Assembly: GCA_964558375.1 (NCBI GenBank)
Contig: CAZLCD010000001.1
Coordinates: forward strand, 17,091-81,090
DNA from: an uncultured Candidatus Saccharibacteria bacterium
Lineage (GTDB): Bacteria > Patescibacteriota > Minisyncoccia > Phycocordibacterales > PALSA-1337
DNA length: 64,000 nt
Direction of reading: 5' to 3'
Positions 5,383 through 24,334 of the stretch are shown piece by piece. Made by a program: the position numbers and the translations under genes. How positions within the stretch are numbered: the stretch's first letter is position 1; each line of letters opens with the position of its first letter. A model generated the notes under the pieces. That model was not told where the DNA came from. It saw only the letters and a list, made by a program, of their open reading frames with translations, and made no database searches.

Positions 5383-8300
5383 TTACCTCTCGATCTTCAT
5401 TTTAAGAGTAAGATCTCCTAGAGTGATCTGTTCTATATCTAAAGACTTAAACTCAATATCTTTTAATAAAGTTGCTTTTAGAATTGTCTCTTTATTTCTT
5501 AAAATCAAATCTGAATTGTCTTTCGATGAATCGATAGCGAGAACTACTTGATCTTTTATAGTCAAATTGCTCTCCTTCCTCAACTCCTGTATCGCTCTTA
5601 TAAGCTCGCGTACTATTCCCTTTTCTTTCAGATCTGGAGTGATGGTTGTATCCAAGACTACTTCTTCGTTAAGATTTTTATCGAAGACAACTTCTAGAAC
5701 ATTGACCTCGTCTTTTATTAACTCGAGCAAATCAGTAGGGATAGATTTCTTTATTGTAAGTTTTGATAGAGGTTGTCTGACATTGATCTTGGCTTTCATG
5801 CGCGCTTCAAGTCCTAGAGATGCCGTTATGCGCACTTCTCTCATATTTTCCAAAACACTATTATCAAATTTTGAAATCTCTGGCCAAGATTCTAAATGAA
5901 CACTTTCCTTCTCGCCCTTTAAACGAAGATAGATATCTTCTGCGATAAAAGGCATAAAAGGTGCCATCAGTTTTGTAAAATCGATAAGTATTTTTCTTAA
6001 GGTGGAAAGTGCCAAATCTCTATCACTCAAGTCTTCTCCTTTAAAACGATCGCGGGATCGACGCAAATACCAAGTCGAAAGATCGTCGACAAAATCCGCG
6101 ATAGGTCTAGAGGCTTTATCGACTTCGTATTTTGAAAGATTATCAGTGATGTCTTTTGTGATTTCATTGAGCCTTGTCATGATCCATATATCGAGAACAT
6201 GAGTACTTGCTGTATCTTTTTTAACTAATTTCTTTTCTAAAATATCAGGTGCGTACATTTCATAAAATGAAACGATATTGTTGAGACGACCGATATGTTT
6301 TTTGACGACTTCATCTACACCCTTTTCGGAAAAGGCAAAATCTTGACCCTTGACCACGGGCGAAGACATGAGGAAGTATCGAAGTGCATCAGCCCCGTAC
6401 TTATCCACCATAAGCATGAGATTTGGATAATTCTTTTTAGACTTTGACATTTTTTGACCATCTTCCGCTAGAACAAGACCGTTAACCACTACTTGTTTGT
6501 ATGGACTTTTGCCGAACAGCGCCACCCCAAGCACAAGCATGGAGTAGAACCATCCACGAGTCTGATCCAAACCTTCGGCGATAAAGTCTGCAGGATAACC
6601 CTTGGTCTTTCCCAAAATTTTACTAAATGGTCCAGGCTTTGGATTGAAGTCGCATTTGTTAAATGGATAATGTGCTTCACCGAAAGGCATAGAGCCGGAT
6701 TCAAACCAACAGTCAAAAACTTCCGGAACTCTTTGCATTTGATTGCCTTTTTCTGAAATAAGTTCTATGTCATCAATGAAAGGTCTATGAAGATCGATCT
6801 CGTATTTTTCATTGTGAGGTAAAGGATGGAAGTCGAGCTTTCTTGGTTTGGAATTTTTATTGTAATGTTCAGCTGAACCACGCAAAGCTATGGACTGCTT
6901 TTCATCCAAACCTTGCACGACGGTCTCGAGAAGGAAGAGTGGTGTATCGTGAGAGACAATTAGGATATTTTGACCCTTGTAACTTTTTTCCATATCATAG
7001 ATAAAATCCCCTACTCTCTTTTTTATATCAGTATAATTTTCACCTCCTTCAGGTGTCTGTGTAAAACGGTCTTTCTGAGCAAAGGCGTGCATAAAATCAT
7101 TGAAGTTTTTACCATTCCACACTCCAGCATTAAGTTCTGTGAGTCTATTGTCAGTTATTATCTTTGAGGCATCCAAATTAAGCTTCTTTGAAATAATTTC
7201 TGCGGTTTCTTTTGTTCTAATAAAAGGAGAAGTAAAAATTAGATCAATCTTTTTATTAGACAACCACTTGGAAGCATCGCTAGCTTGCTTTTTACCCATC
7301 TCACTAAGATGATGCGGATTGTCGGCTCGTGAACTTATGATTGCTTTTGTATTGTTTTCTGCTTCACCGTGCCTGCATACATAGTAAGTATTTCTAGCAT
7401 GACTATACTTTTTTAGATCATTTATAGAGCCTATCACCTTACACTCTTCAGTCTTGATATCCTTCCACACAGGAAGAGGTGCACCCCAGAAACGTGAACG
7501 GGAAATAGCCCAGTCTCGAGCACCGAGAAGCCAATTGCCGAACCTTCCCTCGCCCACCTCCTTTGGAACCCAGTCGATTTTTTTGTTTTCATTTACAAGC
7601 TTGTCGCGAATCGCTGTGACTTTTACAAACCAAGAAGAAGAAGCGTAGTTTAAAAGCGGAGTGTCGCAACGCCAACAATGCGGATACGAGTGAATAATTT
7701 TTTCTTTAGAGAAAAGGATATTTTTGTGAGCAAGGTATTTTATAATCTCAATATCTGCTTTTTGATGAGTTTCTATTTTATTGGCCTTATCCTCTGCTGT
7801 GTCCTTTGGCTTTACATCTTGCCCTGCAAAGTCTGTAACTTCTTTTTTGAATTTACCATCAGTACCAACATGTTGAATAAATGGCAGATTATTTTTTAAA
7901 GATAATTCATAATCATCAGCACCAAAAGCGGGAGCAATATGCACAATACCAGTCCCAGCATCTGTTGTAACAAAATCTGCTCCATAGATCTTCCATCCAT
8001 TCTGGAGATTTTTTAATTTGGCATCATCTGAATAATAATTAAAAATTGGCTCGTAAGACTGGCCGATGAGATCTTTGCCTTCTATCTCTTCGAGGGTTTT
8101 ATACTCTGTCTTTATAACTGATAGTCTGGATTGAGCAAGAATAAACTTTTCATTATTTATTTCTATCTTTATATATTTGATTGAGGGATTTATAGCCAAA
8201 GCCACATTCCCCGGTAAAGTCCAAGGGGTTGTAGTCCATGCCAAGAAAAAAGTATTCGCCTCGCTATTTTTTTCATCTTTCAATTTAAATTTAACATAGA

Positions 8301-8934
8301 CAGAAATATCTGTAATATCTTTATAACCTTGAGTCACTTCAAAATTGGAAAGTGTCGTTTCGCATCGCGGACAAAGGTTCATAGACTTGAACCCTTCGTA
8401 TATCAAACCTTTTTTATAGAGTTCAGCGAAAGCCCACCACACAGACTCGGTGTAGCTTGCATCCATAGTCCTATAATCATTTTCCATATCCACCCACCTT
8501 CCGAGGCGAGGAATTATCTTTCTCCAATCACTTGCATATTTCATCACACTGCCTTGTGCCATGGCATTGAACTTACCTATACCGTAGTCCACAATATCTT
8601 TTTTCGAGGCCAATTTTAATTCTTTCTCAACGATATTTTCTACAGGCAGACCATGACAATCCCAACCCCAACGACGGCGCACCCTATAGCCTTTCATAGT
8701 TTTGAAACGAGGAATAATGTCTTTGATAGTTCCAGGCACTACATGTCCATAGTGTGGCTCTCCAGTCGCAAAAGGTGGTCCATCATAGAAAACAAAGTCA
8801 CCCTTTGGCGAGCTCTTTTCCAAAGTCTTTTTGAAAATATTGTTCTTTTCCCAAAAGGCCAGTATTTTCTCCTCGGTCTCGGCTACCTTGCTTTTCTCTT
8901 GGGTTTTGTCTGTATTTATCGGTTCATTCTGCAT
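5383..8934 (-). CDS. ileS: Isoleucyl-tRNA synthetase carrying an internal histidine-phosphatase-like domain
   Basis: HIGH-type motif (PPFATGEPHYGH), KMSKS present, full-length IleRS similarity. About 190 aa inserted between the WGAPLPVW and DCWFESGS blocks, containing an RHGEAENN motif and a second His motif (LIVSHDTPL) of the histidine phosphatase superfamily. Confidence 0.9.
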   Translation of the reverse strand: MQNEPINTDKTQEKSKVAETEEKILAFWEKNNIFKKTLEKSSPKGDFVFYDGPPFATGEPHYGHVVPGTIKDIIPRFKTMKGYRVRRRWGWDCHGLPVENIVEKELKLASKKDIVDYGIGKFNAMAQGSVMKYASDWRKIIPRLGRWVDMENDYRTMDASYTESVWWAFAELYKKGLIYEGFKSMNLCPRCETTLSNFEVTQGYKDITDISVYVKFKLKDEKNSEANTFFLAWTTTPWTLPGNVALAINPSIKYIKIEINNEKFILAQSRLSVIKTEYKTLEEIEGKDLIGQSYEPIFNYYSDDAKLKNLQNGWKIYGADFVTTDAGTGIVHIAPAFGADDYELSLKNNLPFIQHVGTDGKFKKEVTDFAGQDVKPKDTAEDKANKIETHQKADIEIIKYLAHKNILFSKEKIIHSYPHCWRCDTPLLNYASSSWFVKVTAIRDKLVNENKKIDWVPKEVGEGRFGNWLLGARDWAISRSRFWGAPLPVWKDIKTEECKVIGSINDLKKYSHARNTYYVCRHGEAENNTKAIISSRADNPHHLSEMGKKQASDASKWLSNKKIDLIFTSPFIRTKETAEIISKKLNLDASKIITDNRLTELNAGVWNGKNFNDFMHAFAQKDRFTQTPEGGENYTDIKKRVGDFIYDMEKSYKGQNILIVSHDTPLFLLETVVQGLDEKQSIALRGSAEHYNKNSKPRKLDFHPLPHNEKYEIDLHRPFIDDIELISEKGNQMQRVPEVFDCWFESGSMPFGEAHYPFNKCDFNPKPGPFSKILGKTKGYPADFIAEGLDQTRGWFYSMLVLGVALFGKSPYKQVVVNGLVLAEDGQKMSKSKKNYPNLMLMVDKYGADALRYFLMSSPVVKGQDFAFSEKGVDEVVKKHIGRLNNIVSFYEMYAPDILEKKLVKKDTASTHVLDIWIMTRLNEITKDITDNLSKYEVDKASRPIADFVDDLSTWYLRRSRDRFKGEDLSDRDLALSTLRKILIDFTKLMAPFMPFIAEDIYLRLKGEKESVHLESWPEISKFDNSVLENMREVRITASLGLEARMKAKINVRQPLSKLTIKKSIPTDLLELIKDEVNVLEVVFDKNLNEEVVLDTTITPDLKEKGIVRELIRAIQELRKESNLTIKDQVVLAIDSSKDNSDLILRNKETILKATLLKDIEFKSLDIEQITLGDLTLKMKIER

Positions 8935-10962: not shown

Positions 10963-12186
10963 CTATTTCTTAAGAATCTTATCGATCCTCTCCGCAATCT
11001 TTTTCATATCCTTTTCTTTCTTTCCACGAGTTGTCTCTGCGGCGGTACCGAGTCTTATACCAGAAGGATCTGTAGGAGGTCTAGTGTCGAAAGGTATAGC
11101 GTTTTTGTTTACAATTACCCCCTCTTTTTCTAGTCTATCACTTGCCTCTTTGCCAGAGATTCCTTTGAAGCCATTCTTCTGCGGACTAAAAGTATCGATG
11201 AGTATAAGATGACTATCTGTTCCTCCAGAAATTATTCTCCAGCCATGCTTCGCCAATTCTTCCGCAAGAACTTTTGCATTCTTTTTTACTTGGCTCGCGT
11301 ATTTTTTAAAAGCAGAAGTCGAAGCCTCCTTTAAAGCTACTGCGACCGCGGCAACCTGATTCATGTGTGGACCACCCTGAAGTCCTGGGAAGACGGCTTT
11401 GTCTATAAGGTCACCGATACTATATTCTATATTTTTATTATCTTTATTTGTTTTTGATATTTTTTTATCATTTCTTGAAAAGATAATAGCACTACGAGGA
11501 CCACGGAGAGTTTTGTGGACTGTTGTTGTTACGATATCTGCATATTGGAAAGGGCTTGGATATACCTTACCCGCCACAAGACCTGCGATATGTGACATGT
11601 CTATCATGAGAAGTGCGCCACAACTATCTGCTACTTCGCGAAGTTTTTTAAAATCAATCTGACGAGGGTATGCAGTATAACCACCGACGATTATTGTAGG
11701 CTTTTCCCGCAATGCTATTTCTTTTAATTCATCATAATCAAGAAGCTCGGTATTTTTATTTACTCCATATGGAATCTGTGTCCAAAACTTACCAGTCGCT
11801 GACACTTTGTGACCATGAGTAAGGTGACCTCCTTGATCAAGGGACATGCCCATTATTTTTCCACCCTGAGGAACGAGTGCGAGATACACAGCCAAGTTTG
11901 CCGGCGAACCGGAGAGAGCTTGGACATTTACATGCCAGTCATGAGCCTTAAGATCAAAAAGGTTTAGAGCTCGCTCGATAGCCAAAGACTCTACCTTATC
12001 CACTACTTCATTGCCACCATAATAGCGCTTCATTGGATAACCTTCTGCGTATTTGTTCGTAAGCTCTGAACCAAGAGCCTCAAGAACGTCCTTTGAAACA
12101 TAGTTTTCTGAAGCTATGAGGTTCACAACCGACTTTTGGCGCTTCTTTTCGGTATCAATTAGTTTTTTGATTTGTGTATCTTTCAT
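10963..12186 (-). CDS. glyA: Serine hydroxymethyltransferase
   Basis: Strong SHMT similarity from internal Met (MKDTQIKKLIDTEKKRQ...ASENYVS...). The six-frame ORF extends 53 codons upstream, but the likely true start is the ATG at 12186. Confidence 0.9.
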   Translation of the reverse strand: MKDTQIKKLIDTEKKRQKSVVNLIASENYVSKDVLEALGSELTNKYAEGYPMKRYYGGNEVVDKVESLAIERALNLFDLKAHDWHVNVQALSGSPANLAVYLALVPQGGKIMGMSLDQGGHLTHGHKVSATGKFWTQIPYGVNKNTELLDYDELKEIALREKPTIIVGGYTAYPRQIDFKKLREVADSCGALLMIDMSHIAGLVAGKVYPSPFQYADIVTTTVHKTLRGPRSAIIFSRNDKKISKTNKDNKNIEYSIGDLIDKAVFPGLQGGPHMNQVAAVAVALKEASTSAFKKYASQVKKNAKVLAEELAKHGWRIISGGTDSHLILIDTFSPQKNGFKGISGKEASDRLEKEGVIVNKNAIPFDTRPPTDPSGIRLGTAAETTRGKKEKDMKKIAERIDKILKK

Positions 12187-12257
12187 GGTGGTTATGCGAT
12201 TATTGATGCTTGTAATAAAAGCAATTGTAGCATTATATAAAAAATGGACAAATAAAA

Positions 12258-12312
12258 AAGGGGCTGGAGTCGAACACATGCAATATGTGACGACCCAGCG
12301 CCCGATGTTTGT
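12258..12312 (-). terminator. Rho-independent terminator downstream of tmk
   Basis: On the minus strand: GC stem (gggcgctgg...ccagcccc) with an internal hairpin, followed by a T-run (tttttt). It lies between the tmk stop and the glyA start. Confidence 0.4.
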
Positions 12313-12429
12313 GGTGATATCCATCACTCTGTAGTGAATTGTCACTCACGAGCTGTTAAAAAACAGCTTTTATGACTAACGTCTACTGTTCAATGTGCGG
12401 ACATCAAATAGATTACACCCGTCACTATT

Positions 12430-13062
12430 TTAAGTCAATAGTTTTTCCACAGTTTTGAGAAACTCCACCTTCACCTCTTCAAAAGGCCTGTTTGCGTCAA
12501 TCACAACATGTGGAACTTTTTTTAGAAAGATCTTATAGCCCTTTCGCAATAATTTATGAAAATCCACTTCCCTATCATCAAAATGATTGCCTTCTGTATT
12601 CTTAGAATTCCGAGAACGTGCACGCCTCAAACCCTCTTCAACATCTACATCGAGATAAATATAAAGATCGGGTTTTCTTGAGATATGACTTCTCAAATTC
12701 CAAAATAATTTTTCTAGATGTTTACCTTTCTGTGCATGAATCTGATAGGCATAAGAAGAAGCGTCGAAGCGATCAGAGATTACATTTTGACCTTTGGCGA
12801 GAGCAGGTTTTATAAGTTTCTCTACATGGTCAAAGCGCGCGGCGAACATCAGGCATATCATAGTCTCAGCCACAGCGTCTTTGGAAAGTGGGTGCTTGAG
12901 CGCTGTCTCTCTTATAGCTTCAGCGTAACTAGAGCCTCCAGGTTCACGAGTGAGAAGCACGGAGTCTCCAAGCTTTTCTTTGAGAGCCTTTATGAGGGAT
13001 GACTTCCCTGCACCTTCTCCACCTTCTATTACAATAAATTTGGGTTGTTGATGTTTAGTCAT
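12430..13062 (-). CDS. tmk: Thymidylate (dTMP) kinase
   Basis: P-loop IEGGEGAGKSS, TREPGG motif, length about 210 aa. Confidence 0.85.
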   Translation of the reverse strand: MTKHQQPKFIVIEGGEGAGKSSLIKALKEKLGDSVLLTREPGGSSYAEAIRETALKHPLSKDAVAETMICLMFAARFDHVEKLIKPALAKGQNVISDRFDASSYAYQIHAQKGKHLEKLFWNLRSHISRKPDLYIYLDVDVEEGLRRARSRNSKNTEGNHFDDREVDFHKLLRKGYKIFLKKVPHVVIDANRPFEEVKVEFLKTVEKLLT

Positions 13063-13135: not shown

Positions 13136-13876
13136 TTATTTGGGAGGAGCCACTACCCCTCTTGTCATAACAACTGAATCCGCAGTGCTAGTTAGACCAC
13201 ATGCGCAAGTTTCCAATGTGCAATTCGGGCATCCTTTCCCAAAGACACTCAGATATTCTGCCATCAGACTCATTGGAAACCCCTGGAGCTCAGAAATTGT
13301 ATTCGCAACCGCAAACAAATTCGCGATTACATCAACAAGCTCCAACACCACTTCTTCGAAGAGTTTATTAGTGTGGCGAGCTACGTAGTCGATATATGCT
13401 TCGAGTAATTCTGCACCCTCTTCAGTTAGATGTGCTCCTGAATCCACTAAAGTGTTTTGAGGATAAATTCCTGCAAACATGAATTGCAGTCCAGCAACCG
13501 AAAGTGGGACGGGTAAATTTCCAGCTGGAGTTTCCAAACCTCTTACACTCGCCCGCTTATTGCCACAGGCACAAGGTGCTGTAGTGCAGTAGGGACAAAC
13601 TCCGGGAAATCTTTTCCTGACTTCCATATCCAGATCCAACGATAGGTGATTTGCCAGTGCCAAAGACCAGGAAAAAGCCATTACCGTACCTCTTCTGATA
13701 TCTTCTGCCTTGCCCTTACGAATCCCTTTGGTTGCTATAGTTGCGTAACGCAAGATCTTCATACACATTTGTGTAGGGCTGTACACTCGGCTATTTTGTA
13801 GCCAATATATTTCCCGATTTAAAGACTGAACATGGTAGAAGCTAACCCTTTCAGGGGGCGGTAGTATAGTGAGCAT
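13136..13876 (-). CDS. MazG/DCTPP1-like all-alpha NTP pyrophosphohydrolase domain protein with two CPxC-x4-CxC cysteine clusters
   Basis: Core EEGAELLEAY...EEVVLELVDVIANLFAVAN resembles the DCTPP1/MazG EVGELAELFQW...QEELSDVLIYLVALA helices. Two near-identical Cys motifs (CPYCTTAPCACG, CPNCTLETCACG). Local GC content is clearly higher (about 45%) than flanking genes. The start codon is uncertain. Confidence 0.45.
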   Translation of the reverse strand: MLTILPPPERVSFYHVQSLNREIYWLQNSRVYSPTQMCMKILRYATIATKGIRKGKAEDIRRGTVMAFSWSLALANHLSLDLDMEVRKRFPGVCPYCTTAPCACGNKRASVRGLETPAGNLPVPLSVAGLQFMFAGIYPQNTLVDSGAHLTEEGAELLEAYIDYVARHTNKLFEEVVLELVDVIANLFAVANTISELQGFPMSLMAEYLSVFGKGCPNCTLETCACGLTSTADSVVMTRGVVAPPK

Positions 13877-13937: not shown

Positions 13938-14360
13938 TCAATTCCCCGTACTTCCAAAACCTCCTTTACCTCTAGCGGTCTCTGTGAGATTTTCTACTTC
14001 ATCGAACTCTACATGCTCTACTTTTTGAATGAGAAGCTGAGCGACTTTGTGTCCTTTTTCAAATTTAAAACTTTCCTCTGAAAGATTCATAAGACCGACA
14101 TGGATTTCACCTCTGTACCCAGAATCTATTACCCCTCCGAAAGTTTTTATCCCATACTTATGCGACAAACCACTTTTATCCCAGATCAATCCCACATACC
14201 CTTCTGGGATTTCTATAGCAATACCGACTGCTATAGATTTCCTTTCTTGAGGATCCATCTTGAAAGCATCGATAGCAAATAGATCCATGCCTGCATCACC
14301 AGGATGAGCGTGTTTTGGAATCTGAGCATCTGGATGGAGTTTTTTAATTTTGATTTTCAT
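13938..14360 (-). CDS. dut: dUTP diphosphatase (trimeric dUTPase)
   Basis: dUTPase motifs (GVIDSGYRGE, RGKGGFGSTG), 140 aa. Confidence 0.9.
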   Translation of the reverse strand: MKIKIKKLHPDAQIPKHAHPGDAGMDLFAIDAFKMDPQERKSIAVGIAIEIPEGYVGLIWDKSGLSHKYGIKTFGGVIDSGYRGEIHVGLMNLSEESFKFEKGHKVAQLLIQKVEHVEFDEVENLTETARGKGGFGSTGN

Positions 14361-14361
14361 T

Positions 14362-14853
14362 TTATTTTTTAAATTGATTCCCTATTATATTATTAACATT
14401 TTTTTTATTAAAATGGATCTCAGAATTTTCTAAGAGGTAAATCGTTTTGATTTTTACTTTAGCCATCCTATCGCGACACCACCGACAAAGCCACCAATGG
14501 CCCCATAGATACAGCTCTGATCCAGTTAGATCAAAACCTTTAACCAAAGCATCTTCTATAGCCTTAACTTCGCTATGATTTTTGGGATGACAGCCTTCAC
14601 ACAATTCATAGCCTTGTCCAGTTGGTATATTCAATCTTACTCGTTCACAAATATTAGAATTATGATAATCACTACCATTTGTGCCGTATCCAATAATGTT
14701 TTTATTCGAGACAATTACAGAGCCAGCTGGCATTGTCTTATCTAAGGAATATAACCTTGCATACTCCTTTGCAGCAGACATATAGACATTGTCCACAGGA
14801 ACATACCCTTGTATAAAGGGCTCTTCGAAATAATCTTCTTCTGATTCATCCAT
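14362..14853 (-). CDS. dCMP deaminase family (ComEB/DCTD-like zinc deaminase)
   Basis: HxE (HSEVKAI) and CxxC (LCRWC) catalytic zinc motifs, plus an upstream CEGCH cluster typical of the dCMP deaminase second zinc site. There is a 1-nt spacer to dut. Confidence 0.7.
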   Translation of the reverse strand: MDESEEDYFEEPFIQGYVPVDNVYMSAAKEYARLYSLDKTMPAGSVIVSNKNIIGYGTNGSDYHNSNICERVRLNIPTGQGYELCEGCHPKNHSEVKAIEDALVKGFDLTGSELYLWGHWWLCRWCRDRMAKVKIKTIYLLENSEIHFNKKNVNNIIGNQFKK

Positions 14854-14906
14854 ATTAGAATTAATTATTATTGTAGTATATAATAAATCTACTTTAAAGG
14901 CATACT

Positions 14907-15743
14907 ATGACAAAATTTGACGAAATCTACAGAGACCTTGTTAGCAACATAATGACAAATGGTATTGCCGAAATTTCCGAAAGAACTCGTCAAGAAACTA
15001 GAGCCATACCGGGCGCACACTTCTCTATTGATCTCGAAAAGGACGGCTTCCCACTTTTAACTTTAAGAAAAATCCCCATCAAGATGTTCGTAGCTGAACA
15101 AGTCTGGTTTATCTCTGGGGCACGTAAACCAGAAATATTTTTGAGAGATTACACAAAGATCTGGGATTTTTTTACAAACCCTGGAGATGTAGTAACTGTC
15201 GCTTATGGTTATAGATGGAGAAAACATTTTGGACGTGATCAGCTTGCCCTTTTGATCGATCTACTTGAAAAAGAACCTAGTTCTAGACAGGGAGTAATTA
15301 TAACTTGGGATCCAGCGCAAGATGGACTATCTTTGGCTAAGAAAAAAAATGTGCCTTGTCCATATTCATTTACAGTAAACATAATAGGCGGAAGACTTCA
15401 TCTGCATAATATAGTCAGATCGAATGACATAATATTAGGTTGTCCTAGCGATGTCGCTGGTTTCGCCTTACTTCAATGTATACTTGCACAACGGCTTGGT
15501 GTAAAACCAGGAATATATTCTCACTCTATTTCCAATGCTCATATATATGACAATCACTATGAAGGTGCGGAAAAAATAATATCGAGGACCAATGATCATC
15601 CGACTATAAAACTTGAATTACCAGAAAATGCTTTTACACTCGCAGAAAAGATGGATAAGGGATTAACTGATGCTATAATAGAAAATCTAACAAAACAGTA
15701 TGCTCCAATGGAAGCAATACAGGGTTTAAAAATTGCAATATAG
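14907..15743 (+). CDS. Thymidylate synthase (ThyA) fold enzyme with Asp at the dUMP-specificity Asn position (possible dCMP-directed methylase/hydroxymethylase)
   Basis: Gap-free alignment to E. coli ThyA across the active site: PCPYSFTVNIIGGRLHLHNIVRSNDIILGCPSDVAGFALL vs [40 protein letters not shown]. Catalytic Cys, Glu58, Asp169, His207 and Tyr209 are conserved. Asn177 is replaced by Asp, Arg127 by Gln and His147 by Pro. Confidence 0.85.
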   Translation: MTKFDEIYRDLVSNIMTNGIAEISERTRQETRAIPGAHFSIDLEKDGFPLLTLRKIPIKMFVAEQVWFISGARKPEIFLRDYTKIWDFFTNPGDVVTVAYGYRWRKHFGRDQLALLIDLLEKEPSSRQGVIITWDPAQDGLSLAKKKNVPCPYSFTVNIIGGRLHLHNIVRSNDIILGCPSDVAGFALLQCILAQRLGVKPGIYSHSISNAHIYDNHYEGAEKIISRTNDHPTIKLELPENAFTLAEKMDKGLTDAIIENLTKQYAPMEAIQGLKIAI

Positions 15744-15754
15744 AAAATAAAATT

Positions 15755-16390
15755 ATGTCCGTAATCACAAAAAACAAAATACTTGAAAAGATAAAGTCTG
15801 GAGATATTTCATTTAAGCCAGAACTAGATACCTTTCAGTTACAAGGCCATTCAGTAGACTTGCGCTTAGGCTTTACCTTCATGATACCCAAGTCTTGGCA
15901 TATGACACCAAAGGGCCGAGAAGCTTTCGACATTACTCATTTTGACAAAAAGTCTAGTGAATATTTCGATATAATAGAGCTAGAACAAGGACAATATTTC
16001 GACTTGTTACCTCATGAATATATACTCGTTGCTACTTTTGAGAAAATAAAATTGCCAGATAATATCATGGCTATCCTCTACCCTCGTTCATCTACAAATA
16101 GAAAAGGTATGTCACTAGACCTCACGGGGATTATCGATGCTGGATACGAAGGACAATTGATTTTACCTATCAGAAACAACACTCATTCACAGACAGTGAG
16201 ACTATACCCCGGCGAGAGACTTTGCCAAGTAGTGTTCGAAGAACTTTCTGATTCAGTAGAACATAAAAGTAAATACCACAACAAAGATGTGATCGATGGT
16301 GTTCAAAAAGAAAAGAAAGATGAGGTGGATTTTATAATGAAAGGAGATATTAAAGGTCTTAAAGGACAGTTTAAGGTAGGGTTGGAATAA
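15755..16390 (+). CDS. dcd: dCTP deaminase
   Basis: Dcd motifs (DLRLG, GIIDAGYEGQLILPIRN), about 210 aa. Confidence 0.85.
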   Translation: MSVITKNKILEKIKSGDISFKPELDTFQLQGHSVDLRLGFTFMIPKSWHMTPKGREAFDITHFDKKSSEYFDIIELEQGQYFDLLPHEYILVATFEKIKLPDNIMAILYPRSSTNRKGMSLDLTGIIDAGYEGQLILPIRNNTHSQTVRLYPGERLCQVVFEELSDSVEHKSKYHNKDVIDGVQKEKKDEVDFIMKGDIKGLKGQFKVGLE

Positions 16391-16411: not shown

Positions 16412-17617
16412 TTAAATATTTCCACCATCGGTTTCACTATACGGTCTGATTATGAACTTACCCTGATCTCTTAATGTTTTTTCAGTCTCGTCTGGATTTG
16501 AGGAAATAATATTACCTGCTTCATAGAAAAACTTGGAGTCTCTGGCATAATTATCCAAGATAACTTTGAAGGTACTTGCATCAGCCCCCTCTAACTTTTT
16601 GTGGCCATAGTAAACAGAAACTCCGTCACTCATGTATATATCATAACTACCACCACATCCTATATATGTTGTATTCTGTGTTAGTAGTTTAAATGTTTCT
16701 GGATTAATTCCTTCTATCTTTTTTCCATCATAGAAAACATGACTTCTATCTCTAGATATATAGTGCCAACAAATATTAGCATCTTCATATGACTCATCTA
16801 TATTCCCCCAAACAATAGTTTTGAAGGTTTGTGGGTCTGCATCAATAATTATTTGACCTTTATAATAAACATTATTTTTATCCAAAGTATAGAGGTGTTT
16901 CTTATCTATATTTGAATTAAATTTATTTTCCAAAAGCTTAAACGAGTTTGGATCAGCTCCTTCTATTTCTTTAAAAACATTAGAGGAAGAAGATGCTATA
17001 TAAGTTAGTTTATAGATTTTGTTGTCAACCCAAATATAATCCCGTGATATCGGTTTTATGTTTTTTCCTTTTAATTCCTTATACTCTGTGAAGCCACGAC
17101 CATTAGAATAGCTGTAAATATTATCTTTATCTTTAAAATACGCGTAGCCCAGATAAGTGGCGTCGACTGATGGTGCTAAAAATCTATCGACCTTGGAATC
17201 GCGATAACCAATAAAAGAATAGAAATCTTTTGCTATATGCGGTAAGTTATCATCAATTGATACAAAAGAAGAACTATCGACGAGAGGTTGTATACTAACT
17301 CCAGATATATCAGATATTCTGGTATCTATACTCCATACAAACAAGCGATCTTTCACAAACCAACTATTTACAGCTTGAAATCCATCTTGCGTAAAAGGAG
17401 TTTTTCTGAAACAGAAATCATAGTGAGTGGTACAAACTTTTATGTATATATCATCACCAATCGTATATAACTTAAAATGTGAATTGAAAAGTTTAGGTTC
17501 TTCAAGTTTTTTATCTTCTTGTCGTTGATTCGCATATAATGTAAACATAGAAATTATTGCGATGATAATCACAACATATACAACTACTATTTTTATCTTT
17601 AGGTTTAATTTATCCAC
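16412..17617 (-). CDS. Membrane-anchored DKNYY repeat family protein
   Basis: N-terminal TM helix, then repeated DKNNVYYKGQ...ADPQTFK / DGKKIEGINPETFK / EGADASTFK units characteristic of DKNYY-type repeats. Confidence 0.55.
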   Translation of the reverse strand: MDKLNLKIKIVVVYVVIIIAIISMFTLYANQRQEDKKLEEPKLFNSHFKLYTIGDDIYIKVCTTHYDFCFRKTPFTQDGFQAVNSWFVKDRLFVWSIDTRISDISGVSIQPLVDSSSFVSIDDNLPHIAKDFYSFIGYRDSKVDRFLAPSVDATYLGYAYFKDKDNIYSYSNGRGFTEYKELKGKNIKPISRDYIWVDNKIYKLTYIASSSSNVFKEIEGADPNSFKLLENKFNSNIDKKHLYTLDKNNVYYKGQIIIDADPQTFKTIVWGNIDESYEDANICWHYISRDRSHVFYDGKKIEGINPETFKLLTQNTTYIGCGGSYDIYMSDGVSVYYGHKKLEGADASTFKVILDNYARDSKFFYEAGNIISSNPDETEKTLRDQGKFIIRPYSETDGGNI

Positions 17618-17637
17618 TTTTATAATTTATAATTAAA

Positions 17638-18288
17638 CTAGAGAAATTTAATCGAGTCTAAAATATGGTTAAATATCTTTCTACAGTTTTCAGTTTGTTT
17701 ACGTGTTCTGTCAGGATTTAATTTTAAAAAATCATAGTTAGTAAAATTCACAGAATCGTAATTACAAGCAGATTGCGTTAGTCCCACAAATCTATTTTCT
17801 TTTCTATAAAACCCTTTCAATGAATGACCTATTTCCAAATCACCCTCATATATAGTCATTCTGGTATCTGTTTTATATTTATCTTTTGTGATTTCCTTAT
17901 CGAACTCTGGGAATATATCTTGCTCTACTATATCTGTACTGCGTGGATCTGTAGGTATCAAGATAGTATTTTTTTGAGAATATATCCTTATCTCATGATA
18001 GCCCATATTATATCGATCATACTTAGCGGTTTTACCTATAGGGATAATCATAGATATGGTGCCGTCATCCCTATCTTCAGAAAGAAAGTCTTTTTTAATA
18101 TAGTCAAATGAGATACCTAGTTCAGCATTTTCTTTTCTTTCCCAAACTATATTTTCATAGTCAATATCTATGAATAATCCATCGTCTTTATTATTTTTAT
18201 AGATATAAAAACTAGTACAGATTATAAGAAATATAACCACATAAGATATTATTACGGATGATTTTAAATTTAACTTCCTCATATCCAT
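17638..18288 (-). CDS. Hypothetical membrane-anchored protein
   Basis: Single N-terminal TM helix (VIISYVVIFLIICTSFYIY), no recognisable domain. Confidence 0.4.
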   Translation of the reverse strand: MDMRKLNLKSSVIISYVVIFLIICTSFYIYKNNKDDGLFIDIDYENIVWERKENAELGISFDYIKKDFLSEDRDDGTISMIIPIGKTAKYDRYNMGYHEIRIYSQKNTILIPTDPRSTDIVEQDIFPEFDKEITKDKYKTDTRMTIYEGDLEIGHSLKGFYRKENRFVGLTQSACNYDSVNFTNYDFLKLNPDRTRKQTENCRKIFNHILDSIKFL

Positions 18289-18311
18289 AATTTATCATTA
18301 AATTGGATAAA

Positions 18312-18346
18312 TAAAAAGGGAGCCTACAGTGAAGTAGACTCCCGTG
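18312..18346 (-). terminator. Hairpin terminator downstream of the M23 peptidase gene
   Basis: gggagcctac / gtagactccc 9-10 bp stem followed by a T-run on the minus strand (A-run 18312-18320 on plus). Confidence 0.4.
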
Positions 18347-18377
18347 AATTGGGTTATTACCCAGGAAACAAAGAGCT

Positions 18378-20471
18378 TTACGGATTGAGCCAGAGGTTTG
18401 GTTCAATCACTTTTTCGTCTTGAGCGAATTTGCCATATGGATCAACAACCCTAAGCATTTTAGAATTGTTGTCGGTACGCCAAACTGAAAAATGGAGGTG
18501 GGGTTTTTCAGCACCTTTATCTCCAACTTTACCAATAATTGCACCTTTTGTGACCGACACACCACTTTTAGGTTTCCAGTTATTGGCATCAGTTTTATCT
18601 ACAAACGCAGACTCAATGTCTGATAAATGCAAATAGCGTGTATAGTAACCGTTATTATGATCAATGATTAGTCCATGGAATTCTCTCATGTTATCAGATG
18701 GTAATGTTGTAAACTTTTCACCTTGATAACTCTCGAATTTACTTAGGTCATCCGGCCCAACTGTTTTACCACTCGCTGGGGCATATATAATTGTTCCTAT
18801 TCCATATGGATAATCATAACCATCGTGACCATCATATTGAAGAGCTGAGGGACCTGCTTTTACTGTACCTACATAATCGAAAGGTAAATTGAGAACACTT
18901 TGAACTGTGGGCAGTATGATAGATAATCCACCATCACTTATCCTTACAGTCCCTTCGATTGCATGAATAAATTCTTCTCCAGCTTTTAAGACTGGAAAGA
19001 TATCTCCATTAAGGGTAAGTATGAACTTATCGACAGCATTTTCACCTGCAAACCTTTTCCCGTGATCCATAATTGCAGACACTTTTGCATCTACAAGTTT
19101 GATACCTGGTGCCAATGGGAAGCTTAGGAAAGGTTGGATCGATAGTTTGTCGTAGAATGCCCATCGGAACATCTCACTACTATTTGGATTCCGAATCGAT
19201 TGCTCTTTAAGATCTATCCTCTCAGCTGTATCTCCAGTGAATTCTTTTGCAGTCAGTGGTGCCCATCCTGTACCATCCTTCGAGGACTCCATCACCTGTA
19301 TATATCCAACTTGAGTCGCAGGTGCCTGAACGATTTCAGGACGAGTAGGTTCAGGGAAGCTTACAAGTTCTACTGGCTGACGACGGAATAGCAGAGTCAT
19401 TGCTGTACTGTGAGCCGTAATACTGAATGTATAGTCTTGGCTCACAGAATACAGATCGGAATCATCACTCTTCCACTCCAAGAACCTATGTCCAGAAGCA
19501 GGATTAGCTTTGAGCGTAACTCTAGTGCCTGCAGGAAACATATAGCTGTTTCCTGCAGCTGGCACAATACCGCCACCTACATCCGATGGATCGATAGTAT
19601 AGGAACCATTTCCATTAACATTTATTGTAAGTTCATAGAGTTTCGGCTTGAAGGCAACATTCACGGTTTTATTGGCTGTGACGCGCGATAGAGTGTAAGT
19701 ATTACCGCCAGTTTGAACTCTGGAGTTATTTACAAACCATTTGTCGATTTCATAATCTGAGTTAGCAGTAGCAGTGAAGCTCAAGCTACTATAGCCTTCT
19801 GCAGATAAGCTTCCTGCGGGACTGATATTTCCACCACTACCGGCAGATGCGTTCACAGTATAGACATTTCTAACAACTTTTAACACGACATCATCTATTC
19901 GAAATGTCGTATACAAGTTATTGTCAGTTTTGACTTTGAACATCAGATAGCATGAAGCTGCCGCCACAAGATCACCGAGAACCAACGAATGTGATTTCAG
20001 TGAGTAATTTCTTGAATCATTGTTTTGATCTTTATTCTTGTTTGAGTAATGAGCAAGAGGTTCTTCATGCGCCAAATCCCCATTGTAATCCAAAAATCTC
20101 AACATAACATCGAGCTTATCGTATTCCAACGATGTACCTTCGGCACTTGTGACATTAAGATAATAACTTACCTCAATCCTGTCTGCAGAGTCTTCCGGCT
20201 TAGGAAGTATGTACTGATAGAGTGCACCGTCTGCACTAAATGTCGTAGAATTCACATCTCCCAGGTATCCATAGTAAGATCCATTGCGAGCATTGACTCC
20301 TTGGATTATCCCAGCGCTTGTTGTAGCGCCTCCAGTATAACGAGTGATAGACCATGAGGATCTATTGTTTTCAAAACTACCGCCTAGTATTCCATCTCTG
20401 GATACTTCGCTCGATTTCAATGTAAAAACAGTGAGCACGAGCATCGACAAGCAGACAATTAACTTCTTCAT
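18378..20471 (-). CDS. Secreted M23 (LytM-type) metallopeptidase with large N-terminal beta-rich domains
   Basis: Signal peptide (MKKLIVCLSMLVLTVFTLKS). C-terminal M23 motifs: HxxxD (GHDGYD), YTRYLHLS, HLHF (HxH). Confidence 0.75.
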   Translation of the reverse strand: MKKLIVCLSMLVLTVFTLKSSEVSRDGILGGSFENNRSSWSITRYTGGATTSAGIIQGVNARNGSYYGYLGDVNSTTFSADGALYQYILPKPEDSADRIEVSYYLNVTSAEGTSLEYDKLDVMLRFLDYNGDLAHEEPLAHYSNKNKDQNNDSRNYSLKSHSLVLGDLVAAASCYLMFKVKTDNNLYTTFRIDDVVLKVVRNVYTVNASAGSGGNISPAGSLSAEGYSSLSFTATANSDYEIDKWFVNNSRVQTGGNTYTLSRVTANKTVNVAFKPKLYELTINVNGNGSYTIDPSDVGGGIVPAAGNSYMFPAGTRVTLKANPASGHRFLEWKSDDSDLYSVSQDYTFSITAHSTAMTLLFRRQPVELVSFPEPTRPEIVQAPATQVGYIQVMESSKDGTGWAPLTAKEFTGDTAERIDLKEQSIRNPNSSEMFRWAFYDKLSIQPFLSFPLAPGIKLVDAKVSAIMDHGKRFAGENAVDKFILTLNGDIFPVLKAGEEFIHAIEGTVRISDGGLSIILPTVQSVLNLPFDYVGTVKAGPSALQYDGHDGYDYPYGIGTIIYAPASGKTVGPDDLSKFESYQGEKFTTLPSDNMREFHGLIIDHNNGYYTRYLHLSDIESAFVDKTDANNWKPKSGVSVTKGAIIGKVGDKGAEKPHLHFSVWRTDNNSKMLRVVDPYGKFAQDEKVIEPNLWLNP

Positions 20472-20664: not shown

Positions 20665-21183
20665 ATGATCAAAGTCTTCATCATCGCTGCGGTTAGTGCC
20701 GATGGTTTCATAGCCAAGGACAGCCAACATGCCGCCCTTTGGACCAGCAAGGCCGACAAGAAGCGCTTTATCGAGCTTACCAAGCGTGCAGGAGTGGTGG
20801 TTATGGGCTCTACAACTTACAAAACTTTGGGGAGGCCACTTAAGGAGCGCGTCAATATTGTATATTCCAAAAATCAAAGTTTCGAAGGTGCAGAAGTTAC
20901 ACAAGATAATCCAAAAGATTTAATTAAAAAACTCGAAGAAAGAGGTTTTAAAGAATTAGCCATCTGTGGTGGATCTCATATATATTCTATGTTTCTAAAA
21001 GCAGGAGTAGTAGATACTATTTTTCTAACCATAGAGCCGATTATTTTTGGTAAAGGTATTACCCTATTCAATGAGGATTTGCATTACTTTTTAAAATTAA
21101 AAAACTCTCAAGCCTCAGAAAGTTCCGGATCACTTCTTTTAGAATATTCTGTCGATTATAGTGGAGCACCGAAGTTAAGTTAG
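20665..21183 (+). CDS. folA: Dihydrofolate reductase
   Basis: DHFR pattern IAAVSADGFIA...VVMGSTTYKTLGRPLKERVNIVYS...ICGGSHIY matching E. coli [24 protein letters not shown]...IGGGRVY. Confidence 0.7.
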   Translation: MIKVFIIAAVSADGFIAKDSQHAALWTSKADKKRFIELTKRAGVVVMGSTTYKTLGRPLKERVNIVYSKNQSFEGAEVTQDNPKDLIKKLEERGFKELAICGGSHIYSMFLKAGVVDTIFLTIEPIIFGKGITLFNEDLHYFLKLKNSQASESSGSLLLEYSVDYSGAPKLS

Positions 21184-23527: not shown

Positions 23528-24334
23528 TTAGGCATTATAACAGGCATCGATGAGATTTTCAAATAAAGCGAGCACCGTCATCTGCCCCACACCACCAGGC
23601 ACAGGAGTGATCATACCCACAATATCTTTTACTTTTTCAAAATCTACATCCCCTACCAGTCTCTCTTCTAGCCTAGTAATGCCGACATCGACCACTATCT
23701 GCCCTTCTTTAAAGAATTTTTGATCAAAGAAAAGTGCTCTGCCAGTAGCCAAGATAACAATATCTGCATCTTTTGTTTTTTCAGCGGTGTTTTCTGTACC
23801 TTTATGGCAGACAGTAACGATAGCGCCTTCTTCATGACACATACGAGATATAGGCTCTCCTACGAGTTTGGAACGACCAACTATAGTAACCTTTTTTTGA
23901 GCCAAGTTGATTTTATAAAATTTAAACAATTCCTTTACCCCACGCGCTGTGGCTGGCATAAACTTTGTATTGCAATTCAAACCATCGATATCTTTAGAGG
24001 CGTTTATAGAATTTAAAATAATTTCGGAATTTAAATGTGAAGGTAAAGGCAATTGAGTGATGATGCCGTGCACCTCTTTATCATTATTGTATTTTTCTAT
24101 TATTTTAATTAGCTCATCTTGTGTGATCCTTTCATCGAGTTGTACATGAACTTCCTTGATTCCCATTTTTTGCGCAAAGCTTTTCTTGGCTTTAATATAA
24201 GAATCTGAATCTGCTCTATTGCCAACTTGGATTATCACTAGGCAAGGCAATACAGAAAGACCTTCGATCCTTGTTTTTAAAAAAGAAGTATAGTGCTCGC
24301 GTGCTTTTCTTCCATCAAGAATAATTGCTGTCAT
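23528..24334 (-). CDS. folD: Bifunctional methylene-THF dehydrogenase/methenyl-THF cyclohydrolase
   Basis: FolD similarity throughout (ILDGRKA..., GRSKLVGEPISRM, PVPGGVGQMTVLAL). Confidence 0.9.
   Translation of the reverse strand: MTAIILDGRKAREHYTSFLKTRIEGLSVLPCLVIIQVGNRADSDSYIKAKKSFAQKMGIKEVHVQLDERITQDELIKIIEKYNNDKEVHGIITQLPLPSHLNSEIILNSINASKDIDGLNCNTKFMPATARGVKELFKFYKINLAQKKVTIVGRSKLVGEPISRMCHEEGAIVTVCHKGTENTAEKTKDADIVILATGRALFFDQKFFKEGQIVVDVGITRLEERLVGDVDFEKVKDIVGMITPVPGGVGQMTVLALFENLIDACYNA

Follow-up and report, generated by a model that had tools for sequence, protein, structure and literature searches.

The stretch of DNA analysed here, referred to throughout as the window, comprises 64,000 nucleotides of contig CAZLCD010000001.1 and contains, at 14907..15743 on the + strand, the gene for a ThyA-fold enzyme of 278 residues with a cytosine-type active-site signature (PF00303 Thymidylat_synt, 179 bits). 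Two partner genes flank it: a CDA-fold mononucleotide deaminase, resembling dCMP deaminases, is encoded divergently at 14362..14853 (-), and a homologue of dCTP deaminase (Dcd) follows 11 bp downstream at 15755..16390 (+). The deaminase and ThyA genes are separated by an AT-rich divergent intergenic region of 53 bp (14854..14906), which has a putative TATAAT-like box and, 5 nt ahead of the ATG, the ribosome-binding site AAAGG, the promoter scan of this region having returned consensus matches only. We give slightly better than even credence to the view that the ThyA-like gene, judging from the residue signature described below, is a cellular counterpart of the enzyme of phage Xp12: a dCMP C5-methyltransferase in a permuted thymidylate route that would lead from dCTP via dCMP and 5-methyl-dCMP to dTMP.

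The central feature of the enzyme is an aspartate opposite Asn177 of Escherichia coli ThyA (PSDVAG vs PFNIAS), on which three independent alignments agree: a HMMER alignment to solved thymidylate synthases (TSs); a MAFFT alignment to E. coli ThyA, with a reference sequence identical to that of PDB 1aob; and an alignment of 157 sequences. A preliminary description of this DNA had noticed the replacement in an ungapped alignment to the E. coli enzyme, and these 40 residues around the active site (PCPYSF...GFALL) do align without gaps. Residue mapping bears out its further statement that the equivalents of the catalytic residues Cys146, Glu58, Asp169, Ser167, His207 and Tyr209 are present, and Arg21, Trp80, Tyr94, Arg126 and Arg166 are likewise kept. 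Alongside Asn177→Asp, the enzyme has the substitutions Trp83→Phe, Arg127→Gln and His147→Pro, all seen earlier, and also Phe176→Ser. In the multiple alignment with ThyA, T4 gp42 and the Xp12-type enzyme that had been suggested as a check, the aspartate stays at position 177 and the signature as a whole is Xp12-like.

This signature is a property of the entire family. Among the 120 closest homologues (72-100% identity), Asp177 and Phe83 are invariant (120/120 each) and Pro147 is found in 116; Arg126, Ser167 and an asparagine at the third position ahead of the catalytic cysteine (C-3) occur in every one, and none shows a reversion to Asn at 177. Since it is fixed across these homologues, Asp177 is not a sequencing error or a chance replacement; it is also present in all 75 open reading frames that were selected by motif pattern from related genomes. 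Around the catalytic cysteine the query has the motif N-V-P-C-P, identical to that of phages Xp12, Mallos, RcRudolph and AMA2, where T4 gp42 has D-F-M-C-T and E. coli ThyA has L-A-P-C-H. Relative to canonical ThyA, the family has an insertion of 4-5 residues ahead of this cysteine, and because of it the structural equivalent of Leu143 is ambiguous, with HMMER and MAFFT disagreeing. The C-terminus, K-I-(A/V)-(L/I), ends in an aliphatic residue as in TS.

Published work on ThyA homologues offers several rules by which this signature can be read. In TS, Asn177 pairs with O4 and N3-H of uracil and His147 networks with O4 of dUMP. A metavirome study found positions 177 and 147 to be the top two discriminators between cytosine-modifying and canonical ThyA homologues, and Asp at 177 marks the characterised cytosine-acting enzymes T4 CH, MilA and BcmA; in the 157-sequence alignment the Xp12 enzyme also has it. 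According to the MilA study, Arg126 and Ser167 mark deoxyribo substrates, whereas Lys at 126 and Ala at 167 mark a preference for ribose. Two further rules concern the product: an acidic residue at the Leu143 position (C-3), which admits water to the methylene intermediate, marks hydroxymethyl products, and Asp169→Asn marks 5-hydroxy-dCMP synthases. Experiments have shown that the Xp12 ThyA homologue makes 5-methyl-dCMP and that the deaminase family associated with it (mSCD-B5 and relatives) acts on 5-methylcytosine (5mC) nucleotides; in virome data, ThyA and deaminase genes are co-located in 70% of cytosine-modified contigs as against 6% of unmodified ones. The preliminary description had predicted a methylase or hydroxymethylase directed at dCMP. 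The predicted dCMP direction fits the published rules on Asp177 and His147→Pro, whereas the hydroxymethylase part is disfavoured by the asparagine at C-3 and by synteny with dihydrofolate reductase (DHFR).

The closest experimentally characterised relative of the enzyme is the Xp12 dCMP methyltransferase, with a pairwise score of 167 bits (35% identity), as compared to 100 bits (27%) for E. coli ThyA and 33 bits (22%) for T4 gp42. Two co-varying signatures emerge when the 150 best representatives of clusters at 50% identity are compared: Asp177 occurs in about 128 (Pro147 accompanies it in 105 and mostly Val, Ile or Leu in the others; Phe83 is present in most), while 19 have the combination Trp83/Arg127/His147/Asn177. 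The canonical sequences come together in a neighbour-joining tree, where the Parcubacteria family, to which the query belongs, forms a clade with 100% bootstrap among the Asp type; this family is a lineage of its own.

The two partner proteins were studied in a comparable manner. The deaminase matches PF00383 (39 bits; cut-off 25) and MafB19-deam, and its motifs are intact: throughout its family H-x-E, C-x-x-C and an additional zinc motif, C.R/C.GC, do not vary. A profile of this family matches the dCMP deaminase of S. mutans (2hvv, E 2e-8), and the top Foldseek matches of an AlphaFold2 (AF2) model (predicted local distance difference test, pLDDT, 88) are the dCMP deaminases 4p9e, 1vq2, 7fh4 and 2w4l, from cyanophage S-TIM5, T4, PBCV-1 and human. 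We predict that it turns 5-methyl-dCMP into dTMP or, if the neighbouring enzyme is an ordinary TS, dCMP into dUMP; sequence comparison with the Xp12-type deaminases yielded no specificity marker, and 5mC selectivity of deaminases is described in a preprint as polyphyletic. The PHROGs library gave no match for the deaminase.

The Dcd homologue passes the TIGR02274 cut-off (118 bits; cut-off 92.8) and matches PF22769. Ungapped HMMER alignments to Dcd structures, with the E. coli reference sequence verified against PDB 1xs1, place a proline at the position of E. coli Glu138 (LILPIRN vs ITLELFN / ITLELSN); the same proline is present in 77/77 relatives, and Ser111, Arg115 and Asp128 are kept. Catalytic Glu138 is essential for deamination by Dcd, and therefore deamination is not expected despite the TIGR02274 match. 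Instead, we predict a non-deaminating dCTP pyrophosphatase that supplies dCMP; the archaeal Dcd-like dUTPases are a precedent for a hydrolase-only member of the Dcd fold. A search for the Glu-less homologue among the IMG/VR viral contigs found none. As regards solved structures, the Dcd entries in PDB include an E138D variant (2v9x), and 9ln0/9ln3 and 8y1w are deposited as 'dCTP deaminase' (155-156 aa). In the alignment of 9ln0 a methionine occupies the catalytic Glu position (LTLMLYN), and thus Glu-less Dcd-fold proteins may already have been crystallised under the name 'dCTP deaminase'.

Related arrangements occur in independent lineages. One protein (P0140, L087:8001-9302) is a natural fusion of such a deaminase with an Asp-type ThyA, encoded next to a Dcd homologue of the Pro type, with a ribonucleotide reductase nearby, and another (P0164) has a PRA-PH/MazG pyrophosphatase fused to an Asp-type ThyA. 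In relatives at 43-53% identity a deaminase gene adjoins the Asp-type ThyA in each case, two of these being in phage-like contigs. A further fusion joins an Asp177-type ThyA to an HNH endonuclease domain (P0162).

Beyond its immediate partners, the ThyA-like gene is embedded in a larger set of thymidylate genes, a setting that the preliminary description had overlooked. On the - strand upstream lie serine hydroxymethyltransferase (SHMT; 10963..12345; PF00464, 538 bits over residues 54-453), which regenerates methylene-tetrahydrofolate (CH2-THF); the dTMP kinase Tmk (12430..13062; TIGR00041, 149 bits, cut-off 83; PF02223); and a canonical trimeric dUTPase, Dut (13938..14360; TIGR00576, 156 bits, cut-off 102.55; PF00692). 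The true DHFR is found 4.9 kb downstream of the ThyA-like gene at 20665..21183 (+), with PF00186 and the Thermotoga maritima DHFR 1cz3 as its best PDB match (E 5e-30); the earlier placement of the gene beside folA was mistaken in this genome, where its actual neighbours are the deaminase, at 53 bp, and the Dcd homologue, at 11 bp. FolD, the methylene-THF dehydrogenase/cyclohydrolase, provides a peripheral one-carbon context at 23528..24334 (-; PF02882, PF00763).

The same arrangement recurs in a sample of 80 species-level genomes from Taylor-, Adler-, Kaiser-, Campbell-, Nomura-, Colwell-, Liptonbacteria and others. The deaminase is directly upstream and divergent in 79 of these, and the Dcd homologue is downstream on the same strand in 77; in 64, DHFR follows the ThyA gene at a distance of up to about 1.7 kb, mostly as the next gene. 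The cluster includes SHMT in 65/80 and Tmk in 53/80, a dUTPase homologue is located less than 8 kb from the ThyA gene in 35/80, and FolD is about 3-7 kb away in 39/80. In one scan at least 256 species-level genomes were matched. The linkage to DHFR argues for a reaction that releases dihydrofolate (DHF), that is for transfer of a methyl rather than a hydroxymethyl group, and the conserved aliphatic C-terminus likewise argues for DHF-releasing methyl transfer.

The window as a whole is a piece of a Patescibacteria (Parcubacteria-type) chromosome: it encodes isoleucyl- and arginyl-tRNA synthetases (IleRS, ArgRS), a class II aminoacyl-tRNA synthetase, RecO, L11, NusG, RNA-modification enzymes and six tRNA genes, and the nearest relatives of the ThyA-like protein are all from metagenome-assembled genomes (MAGs) of Patescibacteria/Parcubacteria. 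The locus represents a cellular thymidylate cluster rather than an island for DNA modification; given this placement of the gene on a bacterial chromosome, the end product is likely to be dTMP, reached by deamination, rather than a modified DNA base.

Some details of the region deserve separate mention. Three unrelated genes on the - strand (16412-20471) lie between the Dcd homologue and DHFR in this genome; they encode a member of the DKNYY family, a 216-aa protein without annotation and an M23 peptidase of 697 aa that has InlB B-repeats. In most relatives, ThyA, DHFR and Dcd are contiguous. The SHMT reading frame opens at a GTG 53 codons ahead of the Pfam match, and the real start is probably Met54 (~12186). 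At 5383-8934 (-) there is an isoleucyl-tRNA-synthetase-like protein of 1183 aa whose class I synthetase is interrupted, between the catalytic-domain matches, by a histidine-phosphatase domain (residues 518-678; PF00300, E 4e-33). Many of the related MAGs carry, in third-party annotation records, the label 'uncultured Candidatus Saccharibacteria'; the cluster and the protein identities place them with Parcubacteria/Paceibacteria, and the labels look unreliable.

From these components we infer the substrate specificities, the order of methylation and deamination, and the dCTPase activity of the following route. The Glu-less Dcd homologue would hydrolyse dCTP to dCMP and PPi. In the ThyA-like enzyme, Cys146 would attack C6 of dCMP, with Asp177 accepting a hydrogen of the N4-amino group and protonating N3; the methylene of CH2-THF would then be transferred and reduced by hydride transfer, giving 5-methyl-dCMP and DHF, such that CH2-THF serves as both carbon donor and reductant, with DHFR and SHMT recycling the folate. 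The divergent CDA-fold deaminase would strip the 4-amino group of 5-methyl-dCMP to yield dTMP, which Tmk would phosphorylate to dTDP. In this scheme hydrolysis would come first, followed by methylation and then deamination, a permutation of the classical order, in which deamination precedes hydrolysis and methylation; dUMP would be bypassed.

Several points weigh against dCMP methylation as the function of this enzyme. The sequence covers 64 kb of a 330-kb contig, and a thyX or an Asn-type thyA may be present elsewhere in the genome; within the window a motif scan detected no ThyA-like motif other than that of 14907-15743, as had been claimed, and a ThyX motif scan, which covered the window and ~1 Mb of flanks from related genomes, gave no match. 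The deep nodes of the neighbour-joining tree are without support, and the HMM scores of the family are 257 bits against the Xp12 clade vs 227 against canonical synthases, or 250 vs 237.5 with five signature positions masked: kinship to the Xp12 clade, a 30-bit preference that falls to 12 bits on masking, is thus weak evidence, and the argument therefore rests on the signature. The deaminase resembles bona fide dCMP deaminases and is just 20-26% identical to the Xp12-type deaminases, and the presence of a canonical dUTPase means that dUMP is made, without an obvious consumer. Finally, the neighbourhood (the dead Dcd, the adjacent deaminase, DHFR and the fusions) fits a route from dCMP via dUMP to dTMP equally well, and only the ThyA signature discriminates between the two.

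The main alternative is an ordinary thymidylate synthase that would act on dUMP in spite of Asp177; a protonated Asp could, for instance, stand in for the Asn amide. In that case the Dcd homologue would supply dCMP (or be a dUTPase) and the neighbouring enzyme would be a plain dCMP deaminase giving dUMP, which amounts to the familiar dCMP-deaminase route. We regard this as unlikely, though as an explanation to be taken seriously. It fits the presence of Tmk, SHMT, DHFR, dUTPase and a dCMP-deaminase-like gene in what is a complete thymidylate cluster, the affinity of the deaminase to true dCMP deaminases by both profile and fold, and the source annotations, which read thymidylate synthase. Of the NCBIfam TS equivalogs, the cut-off of TIGR03284 is indeed passed (124.2 vs 108.35); however, NF002497 (143 vs 327), NF002496 (132 vs 325), the archaeal TIGR03283 (78 vs 174.55) and likewise the remaining NF-series models fall far below theirs, and 5 of the 6 cut-offs for full-length bacterial TS are missed by a wide margin. 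All the catalytic and folate-closing features of TS are kept, and the family is nearly equidistant from canonical TS once the signature positions are masked, but Asp177 comes together with Pro147, Phe83 and N-V-P-C-P as in the validated Xp12 methylase, and it is fixed without reversion. Moreover, every characterised natural enzyme with Asp177 uses a cytosine nucleotide, and the Asn→Asp change switches TS to dCMP.

A compromise between these two possibilities, which we hold to be improbable, is a dual-substrate enzyme that methylates dCMP as well as dUMP at useful rates: dCMP from the Dcd-like enzyme and dUMP from the dUTPase would both lead to dTMP, and the deaminase would clear 5-methyl-dCMP. 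Such an enzyme would provide the consumer needed for dUMP from the canonical dUTPase in the cluster, and the full TS catalytic set is kept; engineered Asn→Asp mutants of TS, in the work of Hardy and Santi, reportedly retain some activity on dUMP. The loss of His147 nonetheless argues for specialisation, and a dUTPase is near the ThyA gene in just 35/80 relatives.

A bolder variant of the dCMP-methylation route, which we consider a long shot, would have part of the 5-methyl-dCMP phosphorylated, with genomic cytosine largely or wholly replaced by 5mC at the nucleotide level. In it dCTP would be cleared by the Glu-less Dcd homologue and, in this genome, also by a MazG/dimeric-dUTPase-like protein of 246 aa. 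This lineage-specific, all-alpha NTP pyrophosphatase-like protein, encoded at 13136..13876 (-), has two CPxC..C.C motifs and invariant EE..E..E and E..D motifs. It has no Pfam or PHROG match and only 7 homologues, one of them named NTP pyrophosphatase by JGI, and is present in 1/80 related loci; more speculatively, it may be a house-cleaning enzyme for dCTP or 5-methyl-dCTP. Genomes with 5mC in place of cytosine have until now been known from phages alone, Xp12 among them.

Very improbable, in our estimate, is a dCMP hydroxymethylase or another C5-modifying enzyme, like T4 gp42, MilA or a 5-hydroxy-dCMP synthase, that makes a modified base or secondary metabolite. In its favour, Asp177 is common to T4 gp42, MilA and BcmA, and our enzyme has other residues in place of Phe176 and Trp83 in the folate pocket, but C-3 is Asn, not Asp or Glu, and the similarity to gp42 is low (22% identity, 33 bits). 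Asp169 is kept and hence the enzyme is not a 5-hydroxylase; together, the rules on C-3 and Asp169 and the synteny with DHFR in 64/80 relatives lead us to reject the hydroxymethylase and 5-hydroxylase functions. The deoxyribo-type Arg126 and Ser167, unlike the residues of MilA, likewise lead us to reject CMP (ribo) as the substrate. The annotated neighbours include no glycosyltransferase or modified-dNMP kinase, and with an enzyme of this type the cluster would have no dTMP route.

That the locus is a phage-derived island or prophage module, passive and irrelevant to the thymidylate supply of the host, is barely credible and largely refuted: the nearest relatives outside the family (43-46% identity) are on phage-like contigs with helicase and HNH genes and the best annotated phage matches are Xp12-group phages, but the cluster has housekeeping flanks (aminoacyl-tRNA synthetases, RecO, L11, NusG, tRNAs), is conserved with the same host genes in the 80 species-level genomes across several Parcubacteria lineages, encodes a protein under strong constraint (72-100% identity), and includes a Dcd-like partner without relatives in the viral collection, with the flanks and the lineage-wide synteny being our grounds for rejecting a prophage.

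In the literature searched we found the phage pathway, and no description of a cellular 5-methyl-dCMP route or of Asp177 in ThyA of the Candidate Phyla Radiation (CPR); papers on the CPR treat the gene as an ordinary thyA. The novelty seems to lie in the setting, a housekeeping operon of the cell, found throughout the lineage, that has a deaminase subfamily of its own and a Dcd partner lacking the catalytic Glu. If dCMP methylation is indeed the function, a large branch of the CPR, a whole group of ultra-small bacteria, makes dTMP without dUMP as the methyl acceptor, reordering the three classical steps via a module otherwise known only from phages with 5mC-DNA, and a core cellular pathway would be tied in evolution to phage DNA-modification enzymes. 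Thousands of annotations as "thymidylate synthase" (EC 2.1.1.45) and "dCTP deaminase" would then be wrong and metabolic models would change; these organisms would be predicted to be insensitive to inhibitors of the FdUMP type. The family would also constitute a large and diverse natural pool of dCMP methylases and, possibly, of nucleotide deaminases selective for 5mC, enzymes that are sought after for methylation sequencing.

These proteins can be compared with several known systems. With canonical ThyA (EC 2.1.1.45, E. coli) the enzyme shares the fold, Cys146, Glu58, Arg21/126/166, Ser167, Asp169, Tyr94, His207, Tyr209 and the aliphatic C-terminus, as well as linkage to DHFR, SHMT and Tmk; it differs in that the family has Asp177, Pro147, Phe83, Gln or His at 127, Ala or Ser at 176 and the insertion before the cysteine, and is 27% identical. 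T4 gp42 has in common with it the Asp at the specificity position, the deoxyribo-type Arg and Ser, and dCMP as the substrate predicted here; however, positions C-3 and 147 of gp42 are Asp and Thr, its C-terminus does not end like that of TS, and its reaction gives THF, not DHF. The CMP hydroxymethylases MilA and BcmA have Lys and Ala where our enzyme has Arg126 and Ser167. The engineered TS mutants N229D (L. casei) and N177D (E. coli), which methylate dCMP with CH2-THF, represent the same single-residue switch as is seen in 14907-15743, but are point mutants without the Pro147, Phe83, Gln/His127 and N-V-P-C-P insertion of the family. In its turn, the Dcd homologue resembles Dcd in its fold, in Ser111, Arg115 and Asp128 and in passing TIGR02274, and differs from it by Glu138→Pro in all 77 relatives.

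The nearest counterpart is the Xp12 dCMP methyltransferase (QNN97214.1; 35% identity, 167 bits), with which the enzyme shares Asp177, Pro147, Phe83, Arg126, Ser167, Asp169 and an identical N-V-P-C-P. The module around it, which PaMx74, Mallos, RcRudolph and AMA2 share, likewise links ThyA, deaminase and DHFR with an NTP pyrophosphatase, in the order pyrophosphatase, ThyA, deaminase, DHFR. There are also differences: the Xp12 module is borne by a phage that replaces all its cytosine by 5mC, whereas the present one belongs to a bacterial chromosome, is conserved lineage-wide and has SHMT, Tmk and Dut around it; the deaminase is of a CPR-specific subfamily, with GHWWC..CW instead of FPC..C; the pyrophosphatase partner is the Glu-less Dcd homologue, whereas the Xp12 type has MazG or HAD; and position 176 is Ala or Ser, as opposed to Tyr in Xp12. 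Furthermore, the characterised phage deaminase mSCD-B5 acts on the triphosphate, while the deaminase in our cluster is only predicted to act on a monophosphate. Taken together, the ThyA-like enzyme has the sequence features and gene linkage of a putative Xp12-type methyltransferase, with the difference that it is encoded not by a virus but by a cell.

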